Positions 21,336-53,399 of a stretch of DNA of 64,000 bases are shown here, piece after piece (the stretch's first letter is position 1; every line of letters starts with the position of its first letter). A model generated the notes under the pieces. It had not been told where the DNA came from and did no database searches. It saw only the letters and a list, made by a program, of their open reading frames with translations. The position numbers were made by a program, and so were the translations under genes. Source of the stretch: Negaprion brevirostris (taxonomy: Eukaryota); contig JARDVH010000025.1 in NCBI GenBank assembly GCA_030324005.1, positions 61,528,424 to 61,592,423 of the forward strand. The letters are read 5' to 3'.

Positions 21336-22194
21336 CTAGAAGATGGAGAAACCATAATATATAAATAAGTACAATAACAAAAATGATTCATAGACAGATT
21401 ATTATTACATTAACATTGTTTCATTTTTATTCAAGAATATGAGTGGCAATTTCTTGAATCTGCACTTATAATGTAGAGTTTCACCACCTGGAGTGCATGT
21501 CAAGAAATCACAGAAGTGTGTCAGTGCAAGGAAGTTCACTTCAGGATTGTGCAGTCAGAAAACTGGCACTTTCAGTGAAAGAAATTTCAAAGAAAAGCAA
21601 ATACTGGAAATTATCAGATAAAACAGAAATTTCTAGAAATTAACTGCAGGTTTACCATAATCTAGAAATCTGTACAACATGATTGATGATCGAATGCCAC
21701 CAACAATAAAGGAGAACAACCGATAGAAGTCAATGGTCATTTTTGGATTTGGATCAAAAAAACAATTAATGGGATCATTGGGCCCCAAAATGCTTTTGGG
21801 AACACTGTAATTATAATTGGTGGTTCGTATACAAAAATCCTCAAAAGTAGTCAGCATTCCTGATTTATCATTCTCCCTCTTACATTCTCCACCCCCCCCA
21901 ACTCTCTCAACCTGTCTCTCNNNNNNNNNAGTTTCCTTCCATTTCTGATATCTAAAAGAACCACCTTTCTTTTATTGTTCAGAAGCTGCTTAACTTGATG
22001 TGACTAATGTTTTCTGTGCTTGTTTAAACAAACATTCTTTCTCTATACATTGACATGAAATGTAGAACCTTGAGAAACAATATTTAACATATTGGTATCA
22101 ATAACTAGAAAATTCAATTAAGTGCATATACTTTAATGTTATGCCAATGCATCTCCTAACATTATAATCAACTTAATATATCAAAATGCTGATG

Positions 22195-22330
22195 AAGCTC
22201 TGATGAAGGATCATCTAGATTCGAAATATTGGCTTTATTCTCTGTCCACAAATGCTGTCAGACCTGAGAGATTTTCCAGAATTTTTTGTTTTTGGTTCAG
22301 ATTCCAGCATCCACAGTATTATGCTTTTAA
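22195..22330 (+). mobile_element. Penelope-like short element (family B) with a minimal hammerhead motif at 22195-22235
   Basis: AAGCT-CTGATGA-A-GGATC-atcta-GATTC-GAAA-TAT-T-GGCTT followed by ..atgctgtcagacctg..cagattccagcatc; relatives near 50845-50950 and 54498-54625. Confidence 0.65.
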
Positions 22331-26896: not shown

Positions 26897-27180
26897 AGTT
26901 ATTTTGATCAAAGAATTGATTACAATGATCGCGCTGCAAGATGATAGACAAGACCACGCATTTTCTTGCTTGACTTTCCAAAATATGACAGGTAAACAGC
27001 ATTTCAGTGACCTTACATAGTATGGTACTTGTGAACATCTTTCCCATAAACTTAAGGCTTATAACAGAAACAGAAATGATAGACTAAATGACGGTATATT
27101 ATATTGCAATAGTGTATGCGATATGACTTACCAGAAGTAACCCTTTTATTTCATTAAAAAAACAATTGATTAAAACATAC

Positions 27181-27207
27181 AAGCAAATCTGGTGAAGGAA
27201 ATGTCAT
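27181..27207 (-). CDS. Candidate 27-nt microexon, MTFPSPDLL (unverified)
   Basis: U-rich tract ...ttatttattgtgctttgttag|ATGACATTTCCTTCACCAGATTTGCTT|gtatgt; phase 0-0, no stop, in the intron after the IWLYRD microexon. Confidence 0.35.
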
Positions 27208-28349
27208 CTAACAAAGCACAATAAATAACGTGAATAAATAAAAGCACAAAAGGATGCTTGCAAATAATAAAGCTACAGTGAAAATGGTGCATTTATACTG
27301 CCATTATAACAATGCCATGATGCAGTTTCAGCTTTGCAGCAAAATTAAAGCTGTAATATCAACTTAGAATCAGGCAGAAGAAGCACTGAGAAATTCCTGA
27401 AAGGGTGGGCTTTAATCCGGATTTTAAAAGTTCTCAGACATTTTTGAAACATACCTGGCTTCAGTTAAATGGTTAGAGTGCATGTGCTTGCATCTTGACT
27501 CCTTGAGTGTTTTCAATTTTAATTCTTTTATGTATTCCAACTAGGGAACATAAAATAGGTAGTCTCTGGCTGGAATCCATACTCCAGCCATGAGACTCAG
27601 ACCATGACTGGCTTTCGTTTGAGACAGCGTGGAAGAGACAAAAGGAGGGAGGGAGAGAGAAACTTTAAAAAATCCTTTTTGAAACTATCTAAAAATGAAA
27701 TTTAAATACAGCATAGATGTGAGATTCAGGGCATTGTCTGTCATTGATATGTCTGAACAAAAACAAATTTCAAATATGTTTTTTTTTGAAAAAAGGGTGA
27801 GGTGTAATATCTAGCCAACCTAATTGAAGTATCTTGCTTGTTTCAGTACTTCAAATACATATTTATTTACAGTGCTACAGTGGATGTCATGATGACTCAT
27901 TGCTTACAGTGGTTCTGTTGGAAATGTTCTATGCAGGAAGCATTTAAATGAAGAGTGTTATACAAATGCAGGCATAAAATGTAGCCGTGTTGAAAAATCT
28001 GAGCTTAATTAATGTTTTGAGTTTCATGAAAATCTATTACAATATTTTTCGTTTATTGAAAGGAAATTTTCACATTCAATTATTGATACTTAAACAAAAG
28101 AGGTACATTGAAAGCTGAAAACATGGTGTCAACAATGGACAATTTTTTTCCTCTATTAATGCAGAGAAGCAGAATTAGAAGTAAGCACGTGAAATTTTGT
28201 TCAGCTGAAATTCAATATTAACATTTTCTAAAAACTTGGACTTTAATCTTAGAATCCTGTTGCTGCTACAAATCTTGGTGAAAAGGTTGGTAATTTACAT
28301 GATAAATTCTGTGTGGCTATTTTCATTAACAAGTTATTCATGTTTGTGA

Positions 28350-28590
28350 TGATGATATGAAGATGCTGGCGTTGGACTAGGGTGGACACAGTAAGAAGTC
28401 TCACACAACAGGTTAACGTCCAAAAGGTTTATTTGGAATCAAGAGCTTTCGGAGCACTGCTCCTTCATCAGGTGAGTCTGCCAAGTCACAGTACACACGC
28501 CTGATGAAGGAGCAGCTCTTCGAAAGCTCATGATTCCAACTAAACTTGTTGGACTTTAACGTGATGTTGTGAGACTTTTTAATGTGTTTG
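28350..28590. mobile_element. Fold-back Penelope-like element (family A) with two inverted hammerhead motifs
   Basis: Inverted arms of about 90 bp (about 28386-28474 and 28498-28588), each containing CTGATGAAGGAGC..GAAAGCTC. Confidence 0.75.
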
Positions 28591-29647
28591 TGGTGTTCAG
28601 GGGCCATTGGAAAAGATGAGGTTTCACAGGAGTTAACAGTCTTGGATTCTGTTCAACTTTTTGTCCAGACAATAATTTACTGTAAGCAAGATTTTGGCAA
28701 GCATTGGAATAAATTGTAATGTTTTGCACTGACATTACTTGCGTTTTCATAGGCCAATGTATTATTAAACTTCAGTATTACAGGATACTGTTTCCAACCC
28801 ATTTTATAAATTGTTTTCACTTGGTCTTGAGAGCAATACTACACAACACACACACAATAGTGTGCAACTGCACAATGCACTTAGATGTACTTACATTATA
28901 CTGGCTTGAAATGGACCACATTGTCAACCATGTGCAAATTTCAATTTAGATTCATGATAAGGACCATGAAACAGTACAGTCATTTCCTTTACACTTTAAT
29001 TGACAACTTCACAAAATTGGTAATTTTTGAAATATCACTGACCCAAAAAGAGGAATTAAGCCTCTGTTTTAAAAGCATACAGCTATTAATTTCACCTAAA
29101 ACATATGCACTAAACAAAATTCTAAGAAGACCAGATAACCATAAAAGATATATAACAATGACTAATTTACATGCATGAGTTCACCTCTTCATTCTCTTCA
29201 TTGTGTGCATCTTTAGGCATTGTTCGTTAACAGTATATTTCAAACTCAAACAATTTGCAACTTTAGCTCGTTGAATTTTAATAAACTGATGCTTGAAATG
29301 ACAATGAAGCCACTGGTATGCAGTTATTTTGGCTGCCTCCAAATAATGTATATTTGTAGGCTAATGCAGAATATAGACCAAATTGATTTAATTCAGCAAG
29401 ATGGATGTGTACTTTACACTGTGGTTTTTTTTTCATAACATACAATAATGCAAAGGATAAATGTTGTTCCTACACAAGAGATCACAGGAGTCCAACTGAA
29501 AATCACAAGTCAATTTTTACGAAGAGAATCAAATGGGTTTGCTCAGTTATCTGCTGCATGTACTGCTTGTTTTAGTAGCATGTTTGTATATTAAATGAAT
29601 TGGTATTAAAATTAAAAAAAATCTAGCTTTTTCAGTGAGATACTTAC

Positions 29648-29665
29648 ATCCCTGTACAGCCATAT
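29648..29665 (-). CDS. PTPRK: PTPRK 18-nt microexon, IWLYRD, inserted in D1
   Basis: ctgtag|ATATGGCTGTACAGGGAT|gtaagt; phase 0-0; peptide recognised from PTPRK isoforms. Confidence 0.92.
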
Positions 29666-29828
29666 CTACAGCCCAAATCAAAGCCAGATGTGAAAGAAAG
29701 CACAACAGTGTCAGTGAGTGCCAGCAAATTGAATATACAAGGAGCAAATTTTAAGAGTTGCAATCTTTAGACACAACACAGGAAAGAAAATCAAATGCAG
29801 TATTGTAGTACTGGGAAATGTAACTTAC

Positions 29829-29905
29829 ATCAATATAATTTGCATTAATGTAATCTGATGTTGAGTCATCCTCTAATGGCTGTAAAATTACTCTGGAATG
29901 GTCAT
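29829..29905 (-). CDS. PTPRK: PTPRK exon (77 nt): (Y)DHSRVILQPLEDDSTSDYINANYID
   Basis: cctgtag|AT GAC ... ATT GAT|gtaagt; DYINA motif. Confidence 0.95.
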
Positions 29906-32130
29906 CTACAGGAAACACAATGCACACACTGAATTTATTTTCTTTTCAGGAAGTGACATACAGCACTTAAGCATTATTAAATGTGCTAAAACTGATCTGG
30001 AGTTACTCCGTTATTCACCTTTAGTTTCAAAATACCATTTTCTAACTTTCAACTGACAGAAAATTATGCAAATGGAACTGAGACAGAGAAACGCAAGGCC
30101 ACATTCCAGCATTGGATGCGAGAAACAGACAAAGCACCCTCAGGGCTACGTGAAGAGAGAGATGTTTTCTATAATCCACAGACCCATTGAAACCTCTAAT
30201 TGCCTGAGGAAGTGATCTTAAAAATGGATATTGAAACAATACCCCTTGGAAATACATAATGAGTGAAGTATTTCAAGGCAAGGCTGCCAACCAGAGAGAT
30301 TGCAAGTGATATAGAAAGCCTCATGTCCAGAAATCCTTCAGCAGAGAAAACAAGCTGAGGGCTGCTTGCTCCTTTGCCTCCCTCTCATGGAATAAGCATA
30401 TCACCTGATTCAAGAAGGCAACTTTAAAAAAACTATAAGCAAATTAAGATCTCTTAATAATTCCAGCATCTTCTACTTTTGACTGCACCTAAGAAACCAG
30501 CTAATCCAGATCAGCCGCAACATTTAAAAGCTATGTCTCAAGGACAATCAAAGGATGCTGACCATGTATTCTTCTATCTTTTTTATTGGACTCTGACTCT
30601 CCTTATTTCTGATACCTGTTTTGTGTACATGTGGGTTCTAATGCACAAGGGCTGAATAGTTGACATCACGTTTTTAATCATTTTTTTTCAGATCAAATGG
30701 TTGATAAATTAGCTTTTTCGTTAACACAATAAATCTTGTTTGAGTGGCTTCTTACTACTCCATAGCTTGAATGGTCAAACACATTCAGATATAAAAAGGC
30801 ATATCCTCATGAGAAATAAAAGTAAACATTTGTTGTGACCATCTGAGGAGGTTCAATAGGGCGGAACCAGTTCACCCCTTTTCATTGGTCATAACATACG
30901 GGAAACAAATTTTAAAATCATGTGAACACACAACATTAAGCAAGCAATTTAAGAACCATATTCTGAGTTTGGTCCAGGAACTGATTCTTTTGCTTTCCTG
31001 CGTAGCAACAATATACAAATTTTTGAAAATTGTAAATTTGCACTATCTNNNNNNNNNNNNNNNNNNNNNNNNNNNNNNNNNNNNNNNNNNNNNNNNNNNN
31101 NNNNNNNNNNNNNNNNNNNNNNNNNNNNNNNNNNNNNNNNNNNNNNNNTTGAAAATTGTTAATTTGCACTATCTGACATGCTTCAAGAGCACTGCACATC
31201 TTTCAGCATATGGAGGTGGAAAAGATTGCATTGAATATTATGTCCATGATGAAAGCTTATTATATGGTTGAATTGTGGTTGATTATTAGTGAAAATTACA
31301 TACAACATTGCAAAAGGTAATTACAGTTTTGTATTACTACCCATTAAAGAACTTAATAAAAATTATGCAGTACAGAACTTTGTTCATTTGGCTGATCAGT
31401 TGTGCACTCACCTCTGCCGGTGGGTTGTACAGTCAAGCCTCACTCAATTAACTTTATAACAATATTTACAAAGGGGAAGTAGGTTTAAATGTCTCACAGG
31501 CAACATAATTTACATCCATGTTTAGGAAAAGGGATAAAAGATGAAATTCTGGAAATGATTCCATACAGGCTTCCAACGATAGGCTGCAATCAAAGGGAAC
31601 ACAGAGCAGTAACATGGCTGCAAACCAGAACCCTTGACTCCATTATCTGTCCCAATTTTGAACATCGCAATTAGTCTGATCTCAGCTGTGTATCAACCTC
31701 TAGCATCCATAATGCAGGATAAATGAGTGAACAATTAAGGAAACAGGCATCATCAGAAGTAACCAGCATGGATTGTAATGGACAGATCATGCTCAACCAA
31801 TTTATACTTTGAGACAATCACAGTGTACATAGTTGAAGTGAATGGCTGTTGTTATAGTTGTAGATTTGTCAGCAAGTATTTGATAAGGTGCTCCTTGTTG
31901 CAAAACCTGAGTGTGTGACACGAAAAGAAAGGCAACAAAATGAATAGAAGATATTTTAGGAAAGAACAAGAGTGAATTTAAAATATTCAAAAGATTGTCG
32001 TATGTTTGACATTTTTCTGTTCCATAGAATAACCTGAAGAAATTCAGATTAAAAAGTTACATTTTCATAGAGACATCCAAATTGTGATAACAATAAATTG
32101 TGGATCATAGCTGTTTATAGATCAACTCAC

Positions 32131-34379: not shown

Positions 34380-35720
34380 CTCGCTTATATGTGTAATCAC
34401 CTCTCAACTTAAGCATATGCAAGGAGAGGGGGAATGGGTGACCATCAGGCAAGTAAAGAAGGTAATGCAGATGATGTGAAAGTAATGCAATACCAGTGAG
34501 AGAAAGGCTTCATCTTGCATGAGCAGCCAGAGCCAAATCCATAGCGCCATGGCTGGGTCAGCTATAGTAAGAAGTCTCACAAGACCAGGTTAAAGTCCAA
34601 CAAGTTTTTGTGTCAGCTATGCCAGAGGACAGACAGAAGATTGGAAAAGCAATAATGATAGAGGATTTGATAGTTAGAATAACAGACATGTGTTTCTGTG
34701 GCTGCAAATGTGGATGATATGTTGCCTCTCTGGTGCCGGGGTAAAGGATGTCACTGAGCAACTGCACAGCACTCTGAGGGGGGAGGGTGAACAGCCAATA
34801 GTTGTGGTCCACGTTGGTGATAATGACAACGGCAGAAAGAGAAATGTCGTCCCCCAATCAGTATTTTGGGAATTACAGCAAAAACAAGCAAGCAGAACCT
34901 TAATGTTAGCAATCTCTGGATTATTTCCAGTACAACATGCGATTATAGAAATTGAAGGATAAAGTAGATAAGTGTGTGGCTGGAAAGATGTTGCAGGAGG
35001 GTGGGCTTTAGATTCCTAAGACATTTGGACCAATTCTGGGGGTAATGAAATCCATTCAAGCTGAACGGATCTCACCCAAACACAACTGGGATGAAGCTCC
35101 TTGTGGGATAATTTGTTAATGCTTTGGAGGGGGTTTAAACTAAATTGGTAGGAGACTGTGAATCANNNNNNNNNNCAGGAGGTCAAAGCAGACAGAAACA
35201 CTCAGGTGCACAGAACATCAGGAGGGTCAGAAATACAAAGTTTTAGGTGGATGGACCAAGAAGGAATTGAATAATGTCTAAATTAGGATTCTTGTGCATG
35301 TATGTTAAGGTGCACTGTGTGGTACATAAGATTGGTGAGCTGCAGATGATCATGTAGAAACATGAAGCAATAATGGAGATATGGCTCAAAGGAAGAACAA
35401 GACAGGCATTACTCCTAGATTCAAGATGTTCAGCAAAGATAGGGAAAGAATAAAAGGAAGAGATAGCATCATTGGTTAAGAAGAGGATTGCTATGCATCA
35501 CAGGAATTTATTTGGCATAGCCAAGAAACAATAAACGTAAATGGTAAAAACATCAGTTTGTATGCTCTACAGATCACCTCCTAATGGGATTGCAAGGCAA
35601 TGACAGAGAAAAGTAAGAATGATAAGCAGTTAAAAGGAGAGACTGGAATTAACATAAAAGAGATTGTGATAGTAAAAATGTAAAGAACTGAGAACAGAAA
35701 TCATTTGTAGAGTATATTCA
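34380..35720 (+). mobile_element. CR1 5' region: ORF1 (SGNH-esterase-like) and start of the ORF2 endonuclease, decayed
   Basis: ICCLSGAGVKDVTEQLHSTLRGEGEQPIVVVHVGDND; EIWL..F.KDRE..KG remnants. Confidence 0.8.
34566..34611 (-). mobile_element. 46-nt fragment of Penelope-like family A with a 9-bp target-site duplication
   Basis: gtcagctat at 34557-34565 and 34612-34620 flank agtaagaagtctcacaagaccaggttaaagtccaacaag, which matches 28390-28430. Confidence 0.8.
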
Positions 35721-39188: not shown

Positions 39189-39417
39189 AGTGGGAGTTGT
39201 GTTCACAAACAAGGCATAAAAAGACAAACTCAACTTAGAATACTGAGTTTGTGTTTTTATATGCCCTGTTTGTGGACAACTCCCACTCACCTGATGAAGG
39301 AGCAGCACTCCGAAAGCTTATGGTTTGTGCTACCAAATAAACCTGTTGGACTTTAAACTGGTGCTGTGACTTAATTATTGTGCTTACCCCAGCCCAACAC
39401 CGTCATCTCCACATCAT
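39189..39417 (+). mobile_element. Penelope-like family A element with an upstream hairpin and a hammerhead motif (39288-39322)
   Basis: Inverted arms 39189-39232 and 39244-39287, then CAC-CTGATGA-A-GGAG..CTCC-GAAA-GCT-T-ATG and aaataaacctgttggacttt..ccccagcccaacaccgtcatctccacatc. Confidence 0.75.
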
Positions 39418-48787: not shown

Positions 48788-48915
48788 CCCCTGACGAAGG
48801 GACTAACCCCGAAAGCTTGCGAGTTTACTATCAAATAAATTGGTTGGACTTAAACCTGGTGTTGTCAGGCTTTTTACTGTGTTTACCCCAGTCCAACGCC
48901 GGCATATCCACCTCA
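48788..48915 (+). mobile_element. Penelope-like family A end with a hammerhead motif variant
   Basis: CTGACGA-A-GGG-actaac-CCC-GAAA-GCT-T, then ttggacttaaacctggtgttgt..ccccagtccaacgccggcat. Confidence 0.7.
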
Positions 48916-50530: not shown

Positions 50531-53399
50531 CTCTACCTCAAATCTGCCAAATTTTGTGTTAACTTTTCTCCACTGTAATCCCACTGACTTGCTATCTTTT
50601 TTTATGAACAATGATCGATCTTTGAAAAAAAAGAGGATTCTACTTCAACGCCGAGTACCACCCTTTGCAATCTTTCCTAAATTTGCTTTGGATCTTTTTG
50701 TGGGCGGTACAGCTCAATTGTGACCTGAATGGATGGTACAATATGCTGGAGTGGCAGNNNNNNNNNNTAAACTACTCCTGCTGCTATTTGAGATTTAACA
50801 TATAGTAATCTGCTCCATTTAGTTATCATATACAGCATTGAATAACCCTACTGATGAAGGTCACTCACCTGAAAATCTAACTCTATTTATCACTACGAAG
50901 ATGCTGGCGCCTGCTGGATATTCAGAGCATTTTTTGTTTTTGTTTTCATCCACCAACTCTGTTTTCAACTGATGAAAGTTGTTTTACTCCTATGTTCGGT
51001 AAATTCAACTTGTAACGTGAATAGACAGAAAACCCAAAACATGATACATCACTACATTTGATTCCTCTCCAATGCCCTCATTCACCTCCCACAACTAATA
51101 GATTGTTCGCGCTTTAGAAAATAGACTAAAAAAGTCACTCATGCCTTTAGCCTCCCACTTAGGGACTTTTTATGCAAATAATTTATTGAGTGTAAAGGAG
51201 AAATCACAGGAAACTTCTCCTCTTACTGTTAGTCTTATTCTGTCCTCAAAACTTACCAGAGGTTAATGGTAATAATGAGGTAGAGGAAGCCTTCTTCATT
51301 TTCTCTTCCCTACTCCAGCACTTGCCAGTGTTTGAACTAGGAATTTCCTGATCTATATGGTTCAACTAATCACTGAAGTAACTAAACCATTGTGAGAAGC
51401 TACATAACCTTCCTGAACAAGTGGGATCTTTTCGCACATGTGGCTATTATTTTCTATCCATTGCCTCCACTGATTGCATGAGTCTTGTCAAATCTGTTTT
51501 CAAGTCTCAGGAACTTGTACTGCAAAGCCATAAATTGCTAACCCTTACAAATACAAAGAAATAAAATTCATTCAAGTAGGTGGCCTCAAGGGGATTTCCA
51601 ATATTATTTGTGCACAATCATCCTGATATAAACCAGCAGAAACTATCCTCATTTCTATAGCTGATTTAATGTAAAAAAAACCCAAAAGCCATTTTAAAGA
51701 GGGGAAAATAAAATGGAACAATGTCAAGTCCTGATGGGAGTATCGCCTGACATGACCAAAGATTTAGTGGTTAAGATGGGTTTTAAACAGCTTTTAAAGG
51801 TGGACAGAATGTAGCAGATGGTGTTAAAAGAGAGGAGAGTGGCCCATGGTTACTGGCATCTCCTGAACAAATGATCGTGAGAAGATTAGAGAGGTGTACA
51901 GCAGGTCAAAAATCAGGAAATTAATGGCTGTGGAGGAAACATAAGGTTAAAGCATAAGGCACGCCCATTGAGATATTTGAAAATGACGAGAACTTGTTTC
52001 CAATGTATGGGGAGTCAAGGAGCCATCAAGGGACAGGGGTGTTATATGAACAGACCTTACTGTGGGCAACTGATTGCCGAATGAGTTGGCTTTTACAGAC
52101 AGAGAAATATCAGCTGTCAAGAAAACTTGGAGAAATCTGATGTAGAAGTAACAAATGCATCGGTAAGAGTCTCAGCATCAGTCAGACTGAGACAGCAATG
52201 GACACAGATAATGAAGAGATATAAGCAAGCATGTTGTGATGCAGTTTGAAATCAACACATGGACCCAACAGGATGTCAGAGTTTTGTAGCGTGCGTGGCA
52301 GGGCCAAAAATGATAGTTTTACTTTTCTCAATTTTCACTTGAGATTAGATATTTCTTCCATGACTTATCAGTACGATAGCACAGAGTTAACTTTGGTGTC
52401 AACTGAAATGGTGGAGAGAAAACGTTATGTTTCTTTAGCACACCTATGGAAACGGAGGAGTCGAAGAAAATATTTTCCATTTGTTTGGATGGATGCAACT
52501 GCAGTATGACTCAGGAAGTTCGACTCCATCCAGGATTGGACAATTTGTTGATCAGTGCCTCATTCGTTATCCCAAACACAAGATCAAGCATCAGATCAAA
52601 CCCAAGATGGGGCGCAATGCCTTAACTTGCCAGTTTGGATCTTGTTTATCTCTTATGGGCACCATGAATTAGATTCAATTGGATTTTGAATTTGATTTTT
52701 GGAGTAAGCAAGGAATGGATATGGGTCTGTCTGTTCTACTCTGAGCATTAGCTTTATAATGTTAAGGATACAGTAAGAAAAACTTTAAAAAACAGCCAAC
52801 TTGATTGGTGGCCACAATGTGTTCTATTTACAGGATGAATTGTAGTAACTCAGCAAGGCTCCTTTAGACAACAATTGAACCTGTCTATTCACTTTCTGGA
52901 CAGACAAAAGCAGCAGGGACATGGGAATAACATCAATTCCAAGGTCTCTCCAAGTAATACATTGTAGTTTCTTTATTCTCGTTGGGTCAAAATCCTAGAA
53001 CTCCTTGCCTAAGAGCACAATGGAAACACCATCAGCACACAGCTGTAACTTTATGAAGGAGGCACTTCATCACCATCTTCTCAGCAGAATGAGAGATGGG
53101 TGATAAATACAAAGCTCTCACACCGAGAATAAACATAACAAGTACACCAGAAGATGCAATGCTGATACAAATGCTAGGACCAGAAATGACGAATGCTAGG
53201 TGCCAACACCACTTAAGATTTTTACTCCCTTACCCTGCCTAGTACATTATTTTAATTATGTATCATTTCATGCACATAATTGTTTTAAAACTTTGTTTTA
53301 CTAATTAGGCTAGTTCCGATGTTTATTTGTGCATCCACGCCAATGTTTGTGTGGTAAATTTTGGTATGGTGACCCAAAGTTAAACATAAGATTGAGACA

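Follow-up and report, generated by a model that had tools for sequence, protein, structure and literature searches.

The window analysed here is a stretch of 64,000 nucleotides from the shark Negaprion brevirostris (assembly GCA_030324005.1, contig JARDVH010000025.1, positions 61,528,424 to 61,592,423 of the forward strand), and it contains a fold-back lying within a receptor phosphatase gene on the minus strand, as identified by a PDB sequence match of the neighbouring exon. The best PDB match of that exon was PTP-kappa (65.5 bits, vs 57.2 for T, 49.6 for mu and 47.7 for U), in agreement with the initial annotation of the host gene as PTPRK, and the IWLYRD stretch that had been read as a microexon about 1 kb away was found on the minus strand at about 1.1 kb. 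The fold-back derives from an abundant Penelope-like element (PLE) of the endonuclease-bearing kind, whose ribozyme end (pLTR) is present as two head-to-head arms, and is made up as follows.

28341..28351: left copy of the 11-bp target-site duplication, differing from the right copy at one position
28353..28477, minus strand: arm 1, PTPRK-sense; pLTR from the predicted start A(-6) through the hammerhead and AATAAA to the tail
28353..28385, minus strand: PLE tail, in arm 1 only
28428..28433, minus strand: AATAAA in the pLTR, PTPRK-sense, candidate signal
28439..28477, minus strand: minimal type I hammerhead of arm 1 (core 28471-28465, extra A, 5-bp stem II, GAA-AGCU)
28478..28494: central spacer, found in this copy alone
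28494..28586, plus strand: arm 2, inverted pLTR without tail, 87.1% to the 3' end of the long copies
28495-28533, plus strand: hammerhead of arm 2, stem I broken and stem II weakened
28585..28595: target-site duplication, right copy

The minus-strand hammerhead proposed in the initial annotation is real, with 28477-28439 reading ACTCAC CTGATGA A GGAGC AGT GCTCC GAA AGCT C TTGA and the cut predicted to fall between 28443 and 28442, and so is the second, more degraded one on the plus strand, whose core lies at 28501. The inverted arms also stand, as does their length of about 90 nt (about 93 nt by our delimitation), but the spacer between them is 17 nt long and not 23, the latter figure resulting when one measures from the minus-arm end as far as the plus core. 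The tail and the 11-bp target duplication had been overlooked. By an inverted-repeat search, 28405-28477 pairs with 28495-28567 (73 nt, 84%) and 28386-28405 with 28568-28587 (20 nt, 90%). Arm 1 matches the 3' end of the long copies at 89.7%, arm 2 ends about 35 nt before the end point of arm 1 (the tail end), and no ORF remains between the two arms. The spacer base adjoining arm 1 is G, where the long copies have C.

The window also holds a further fold-back of the family at 39189-39416, in which one arm is longer and takes in the TATA block, a copy at 48788-48915 whose subfamily differs in stem II, and a fragment of the same family at 34566-34607. Degraded hammerhead-like cores at 22189-22300 and 50851-50920 (plus strand) have different 3' sequence and likely belong to other PLE families. 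On the antisense strand, the 5' edge of the hammerhead (28466-28477, plus strand) reads CAG-GTGAGT, a strong splice-donor match seen in this one case, and the same site in the PTPRK-sense arm (28503-28495, minus strand) reads CAG-GCGTGT.

State of the ribozyme and the question of host adoption

The bare core pattern matches 13 times in the window vs 6.3 expected, a number that 3 of 100 shuffles reach, and an Rfam scan returned 7 matches at E<=5, all unrelated and weak, with no hammerhead family among them; thus, the standing of the motif rests on the family evidence given below. The stem I mismatch recorded in the initial annotation was confirmed, and we can now place it at the pair adjoining the cut site, which is C-U in arm 1 and C-G in the family. 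In all four runs compared, position 28442 departs from most family contigs, and since the base after the cut site is U and not G, which breaks the first stem I pair, this copy falls outside the intact pattern. The hammerhead of arm 2 has C-A at the cut, further breaks in stem I and 12 differences in all, and it does not fold stably (z +1.2). Arm 1 is 94.5% like the reference over the first 91 aligned positions, which places it among the less diverged family arms (median 90.9%), and arm 2, at 87.0%, is among the more diverged, so that together the two average the family mean of 90.3%.

The fold-back hairpin has a predicted stability of -111.4 kcal/mol (z -12.7), which none of 200 shuffles equalled, and the probability of the stem II pairs in the full transcript model is about 1e-12. 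The suggestion that the antisense arm could sequester the minus-arm ribozyme is therefore borne out as a prediction, and in the PTPRK-sense transcript the antisense arm is transcribed before the sense arm. When two copies of arm 1 were cofolded, it was stem II and not AGCU that was predicted to pair between molecules, though energy models of this kind cannot decide hammerhead activity. No second same-strand copy with a core for dimer formation was found in the window, and the ribozyme of this copy is likely to be catalytically silent here.

It could be argued that the host has adopted this copy, its hairpin (through dsRNA and editing), its ribozyme or its AATAAA affecting PTPRK microexon splicing or transcript stability. 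The sense arm retains both core boxes and stem II and is better preserved than the median arm, the hairpin is stable, and the insertion junctions occur in contigs of related organisms. In two of these organisms, contigs run from the same flank into arm 2 at its outer end (13 differences in 744 nt and 16 in 608), and the junction on the other side is spanned by one contig of a third; among the contigs of related organisms compared, none showed an empty orthologous site. An insertion common to related organisms must be old, yet this sharing is no evidence of selection, nor does old age alone exclude it. Against adoption stand the loss of the cut-site pair in stem I, the divergence of the partner arm and the lack of a second sense copy with a core in the window. 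In addition, minimal hammerheads are described as inactive as monomers and weak as dimers in parts of PMC4209133, and eight of nine Xenopus dimers showed no cleavage according to parts of a recent preprint (bioRxiv 10.64898/2026.07.22.740005). The special link to PTPRK and its microexon implied in the initial annotation did not hold up, given that the first stem I pair is lost, that the arms show average family divergence and that 1,534 genome copies match the intact pattern, which this one does not. With the cut-site pair gone and the ribozyme predicted to be locked in the hairpin, a PTPRK role is unsupported, and we regard host adoption as very unlikely. The locus is very probably a single old PLE insertion of two head-to-head ribozyme-end stubs, neutral in PTPRK and likely to be catalytically silent there.

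The family hammerhead and its parent element

Both arms and the family master carry the CUGANGA and GAAA boxes, an extra base before G10.1-C11.1, the palindromic AGCU and a UH site, so that the designation as a minimal type I hammerhead with conserved core boxes applies to a master that is intact. The majority sequence has all the features of the PLE minimal hammerhead, and 1,534 genome copies match the fully intact pattern. Stem covariation was examined in 69 motifs from loci picked without the hammerhead pattern, the counts being of copies and not of independent events, and compensatory stem II changes between subfamilies were found: pair 4 is G-C in 48 and A-U in 9, pair 3 is A-U in 41, G-U in 17 and G-C in 5, and pair 2 is G-C in 56 and A-U in 2. 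Only 7 of the 69 pass every criterion, and G12 has become A in 18 of 55 arms, a change that we attribute to the CpG effect. Genomic hammerhead copies thus decay neutrally, at CpG sites and without regard to function. Cleavage by hammerhead dimers was reportedly the subject of work by Lunse et al. in 2017.

The core boxes, the extra nucleotide between 9 and 10.1, G10.1-C11.1, the palindromic 15.2-16.2 and the short helix I are all shared with the metazoan PLE minimal hammerheads described in parts of Cervera and De la Pena 2014 (PMC4209133). Helix II has 5 bp here vs 7-8 in Schistosoma, and the dual motifs on opposite strands treated there lie 100-700 bp apart, whereas the cores here are separated by 29 nt; those parts name no shark for minimal hammerheads. 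A search of the literature by title found no paper on this shark PLE hammerhead family, which Repbase and Dfam, both outside that search, may catalogue.

The link to Penelope elements is substantiated by a near full-length parent, L091, with a reverse transcriptase (RT), a GIY-YIG-like domain and the same end. In this 2.9-kb copy the entire ORF is present, though broken; the same pLTR closes the 3' end, an inverted pLTR of 118 bp stands at the 5' end, and the start codon of the ORF lies directly after the tail end. Upstream of the tail come about 200 nt of non-coding sequence, then the endonuclease-like domain and then the RT. Two of four open stretches match RVT_1 (E 1.8e-6 and 9.6e-7), with scores of 28.3 and 29.1 that fall just below the curated cut-off of 29.6, and three of five database relatives exceed it. 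The C-terminal endonuclease is consistent with GIY-YIG: the Pfam GIY-YIG model had no match on the two genomic stretches but matched 4 of 12 aligned relatives (best E 2.5e-4), VY, YIGE and R are invariant in the endonuclease alignment, and the top seven Foldseek rows were GIY-YIG nucleases, though at E>=0.44 and from a poor model (pLDDT 50). A PDB sequence search with the endonuclease gave one unrelated match (E 0.19). Database relatives of the endonuclease stretch number 26, the closest being 75-81% identical and from Mustelus, Scyliorhinus and Heptranchias. The CX4CX2C linker before it, to judge by sequence, points to the Neptune or Nematis clade, a Zn-finger-like CX2-5CxxC linker being described for Nematis too in parts of PMC8557442.

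The family is large, with 9,101 exact matches to the tail pattern and 1,228 to a second tail pattern in the 2.69-Gb genome, and at 331 loci two exact cores stand back to back, no more than 30 nt apart. At one locus (L064, about 1130-1690) the N-terminal part of the ORF is joined to the pre-endonuclease linker with the RT missing, possibly an internally deleted derivative. Endonuclease pieces also occur within six annotated shark proteins (P0010, P0012, P0013, P0017, P0020 and P0001), namely NOXP20-like, a cytochrome P450, septin 5a, XRCC5, PPP1R12A-like and a pyrin-domain protein, and these are either exonised or mis-annotated.

Both the architecture and the ribozyme class of the fold-back are already published. 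As in the complex EN+ PLE insertions covered in parts of Craig et al. 2021 (PMC8557442) and Arkhipova et al. 2013 (PMC3846280), where inverted pLTR, tail and target duplication form the standard pattern, we see a head-to-head inverted pLTR, a one-sided tail of 30-40 bp and a duplication of 9-13 bp, together with a TATA and an Inr-like motif in the pLTR and an ORF start that adjoins the pLTR end. A 34-bp repeat comparable to the tail is described in D. virilis Penelope (PMC2377424, in part). Unlike the EN+ insertions in those passages, the shark fold-back has no ORF between its arms; and that both arms stop at the predicted start site, with an excess of G there, does not feature in the passages of PMC8557442, PMC3846280 and PMC2377424 concerned.

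Where the copies end and begin

When 177 arms were anchored on the hammerhead and positions counted from the core, the 3' ends fell into two groups, 76 at +80..+89 and 76 at +115..+120. Among 58 tail-anchored loci (two duplicate loci removed), 28 have an inverted copy no more than 60 nt away from the 5' end, with varied arm lengths, which form a continuum up to full-length elements. Of 29 fold-backs, 12 had a scored target duplication, as against 1 of 290 shuffled pairings, and duplications were found in 3 of 32 solo copies. The strings between the cores are almost all unique (66 distinct among 67 fold-backs), with fillers of at least 10 nt in 31 of the 67, most of them unlike the element. In L120, L125, L222 and L230 the spacers hold short re-copies of the hammerhead start in either direction, in the manner of templated end-joining fillers.

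The 5' ends were placed in 58 gap-free loci; these come from the first 66 intact-pattern matches listed, less six that had already been sampled (two of them G-type) and two with gaps. In 26 the end lies at -3..-14, in none at -15..-34 and in 6 at -35..-60, and the 26 copies of the first group begin within 12 nt of the start site predicted from TATA and Inr. A TATA-like hexamer is found 29-31 nt upstream of A(-6) in 28 of 30 long copies, and the 14-mer between the two differs (25 variants). The context of A(-6) is CCACT, which we take to resemble the initiator (Inr) consensus. A rotifer pLTR has a TATA plus TCACT (PMC3846280, in part); the D. virilis Penelope promoter, described as internal and TATA-less in parts of PMC2377424, counts against a TATA/Inr start. 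Of 13 gap-free loci matching from +20..+45, three (L135, L142 and L149) begin within a few bases of the predicted cut, possibly because cleaved RNA had been copied.

Genome-wide, the base preceding A(-6) is C in 6,011 copies, G in 927 and A or T in 653, and arm 1 in the window is a G copy. Of 30 C copies, 22 continue into upstream element sequence, but of 30 G copies none does, and 21 of these G copies have an inverted arm; 20 A/T copies comprised 9 long ones, with T, and 11 short ones. The ratio of G to A before A(-6) is about 4.7, as compared with 60:40 (1.5) at -5 and 57:43 (1.3) at -3 by hand counts among the first 100 listed, giving Fisher p values of 5e-7 and 2e-8 that depend on an A count of about 196 extrapolated from 30 among the first 100 listed. 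Short copies from loci not picked on that base have G in 17, A in 6, T in 3 and C in 27 (n=53), and also T at -8 in 25 and G at -9 in 19. A subfamily with a templated G before A(-6) was rejected, as none of the 30 G copies continues upstream, and so was C-to-G mutation of long copies, which have C in 67, T in 4 and G in none (n=71).

A non-element G before A(-6) would be expected if a capped sense RNA were copied to its end. An untemplated 5' G at the RNA start of full-length L1 insertions has been attributed to cap copying (PMC9341517, in part), although L1 belongs to a different retroelement class and the shark G comes from genome-wide counts only. Several observations count against a cap origin. 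The G lies within the duplicated target in both solo G copies whose duplication could be resolved, though duplications were found in so few solo copies that this test for a G lying beyond the target has little power; in about 8 of 21 G fold-backs the G can, by eye, be taken for a continuation of the opposite arm; G exceeds the genome composition at both control positions too; C is still the commonest base among the short copies; and snap-back self-priming would give the same enrichment of T at -8. A literature search with most subscription journals outside its scope found, among the matches listed, no report of a cap-derived G in PLEs.

Origin of the head-to-head arms

Taken as a whole, these findings are likely to be best explained by a twin run-off, in which element RNA was copied onto the two cut strands of DNA. 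From a TATA/Inr promoter in the pLTR, a capped RNA would start at A(-6), six bases ahead of the hammerhead core, and the endonuclease would nick both target strands about 11-13 bp apart. Reverse transcription would begin at two tail ends, one site per strand, as it does in vitro for an anole PLE, and where it began in the 5' pLTR it would run off the capped end after 90-125 nt, often adding a cap-copied base, the two cDNA ends then being joined with variable filler. Two internal RT start sites bounding the tail, with both strands cut and extended, are described in parts of the in vitro work on the PAc Poseidon element of Anolis (Frangieh et al. 2024, PMC11167929), where the hammerhead is protein-assisted and dispensable for insertion. 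PAc differs in belonging to the Poseidon clade and in having its ORF start inside the hammerhead, while the shark ORF starts after the tail and the shark linker is Neptune-like; inverted arms and the cap lie outside the subject of that work as those parts present it. We lean towards run-off at the predicted start site and put forward the cap as the source of the extra G more tentatively. The full reading, in which the head-to-head stubs are twin-primed pairs of cDNA that ran off the end of a sense PLE mRNA at its capped 5' leader and the G is a copied cap, is a possibility that we stop a little short of calling probable. A search by abstract on twin priming of inverted Penelope ends found no paper on a PLE mechanism.

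The main competing explanation is that one cDNA (or an antisense template) snapped back and primed itself near the 5' edge of the hammerhead and was then copied back, so that the pile-up of ends would come from structure and not from the RNA start. Self-priming on an antisense template was argued by Arkhipova et al. 2013 (PMC3846280, in part), and both the recurrence of short palindromic centres such as GTGAGTCAC and the enrichment of T at -8 and G at -9 in short copies fit such a process. It does not readily accommodate the many fillers of 10 nt or more, most of them unlike the element, nor the solo copies, which begin at the same place without an inverted arm; moreover, the two arms end at two different tail sites and the ends sit at TATA spacing. 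We therefore consider self-priming unlikely, if still the strongest of the rivals to the twin run-off.

The initial annotation had taken the fold-back for a non-autonomous ribozyme-bearing element, which as a mobile unit (MITE-like or retrozyme-like) would be copied whole by the PLE enzymes. Outer boundaries are indeed common to copies, and 40 scored candidates match most of a 256-nt query at 79-84%, but the search with that query selects for the fold-back layout. Spread as a unit is contradicted by the distinct centres, with MITE-type shared internal sequence absent, by the differing end points of the arms and by arm lengths that are continuous up to full-length elements. Non-LTR retrozymes, as set out in parts of the preprint bioRxiv 10.64898/2026.07.22.740005, are likewise pLTR-derived, hammerhead-bearing and non-coding, but they are head-to-tail tandems with a ribozyme per unit, whereas the shark stub is inverted and made anew at each site. 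A repeat search of 27000-30000 found no head-to-tail direct repeat (same-strand tandem units), and with the fold-back inverted, a retrozyme was rejected. Copying as a unit is thus already largely refuted, and we hold it to be the least probable of the explanations considered.

The locus itself is an ordinary degraded insertion, and it is the family that matters, for the question of how PLEs make head-to-head inverted ends; their origin, and whether the template is sense or antisense, are described as open in parts of PMC3846280. Two sharp predictions follow, an RNA 5' end at one base from the clustering of the ends and a cap-dependent extra base from the position-specific G. If the twin run-off of capped sense RNA is true, then inverted pLTRs do not come from self-priming on an antisense template, the hammerhead that opens the mRNA would usually be uncleaved in the RNA that gets copied, and shark genomes would record tens of thousands of twin-priming events on capped, uncut sense RNA.
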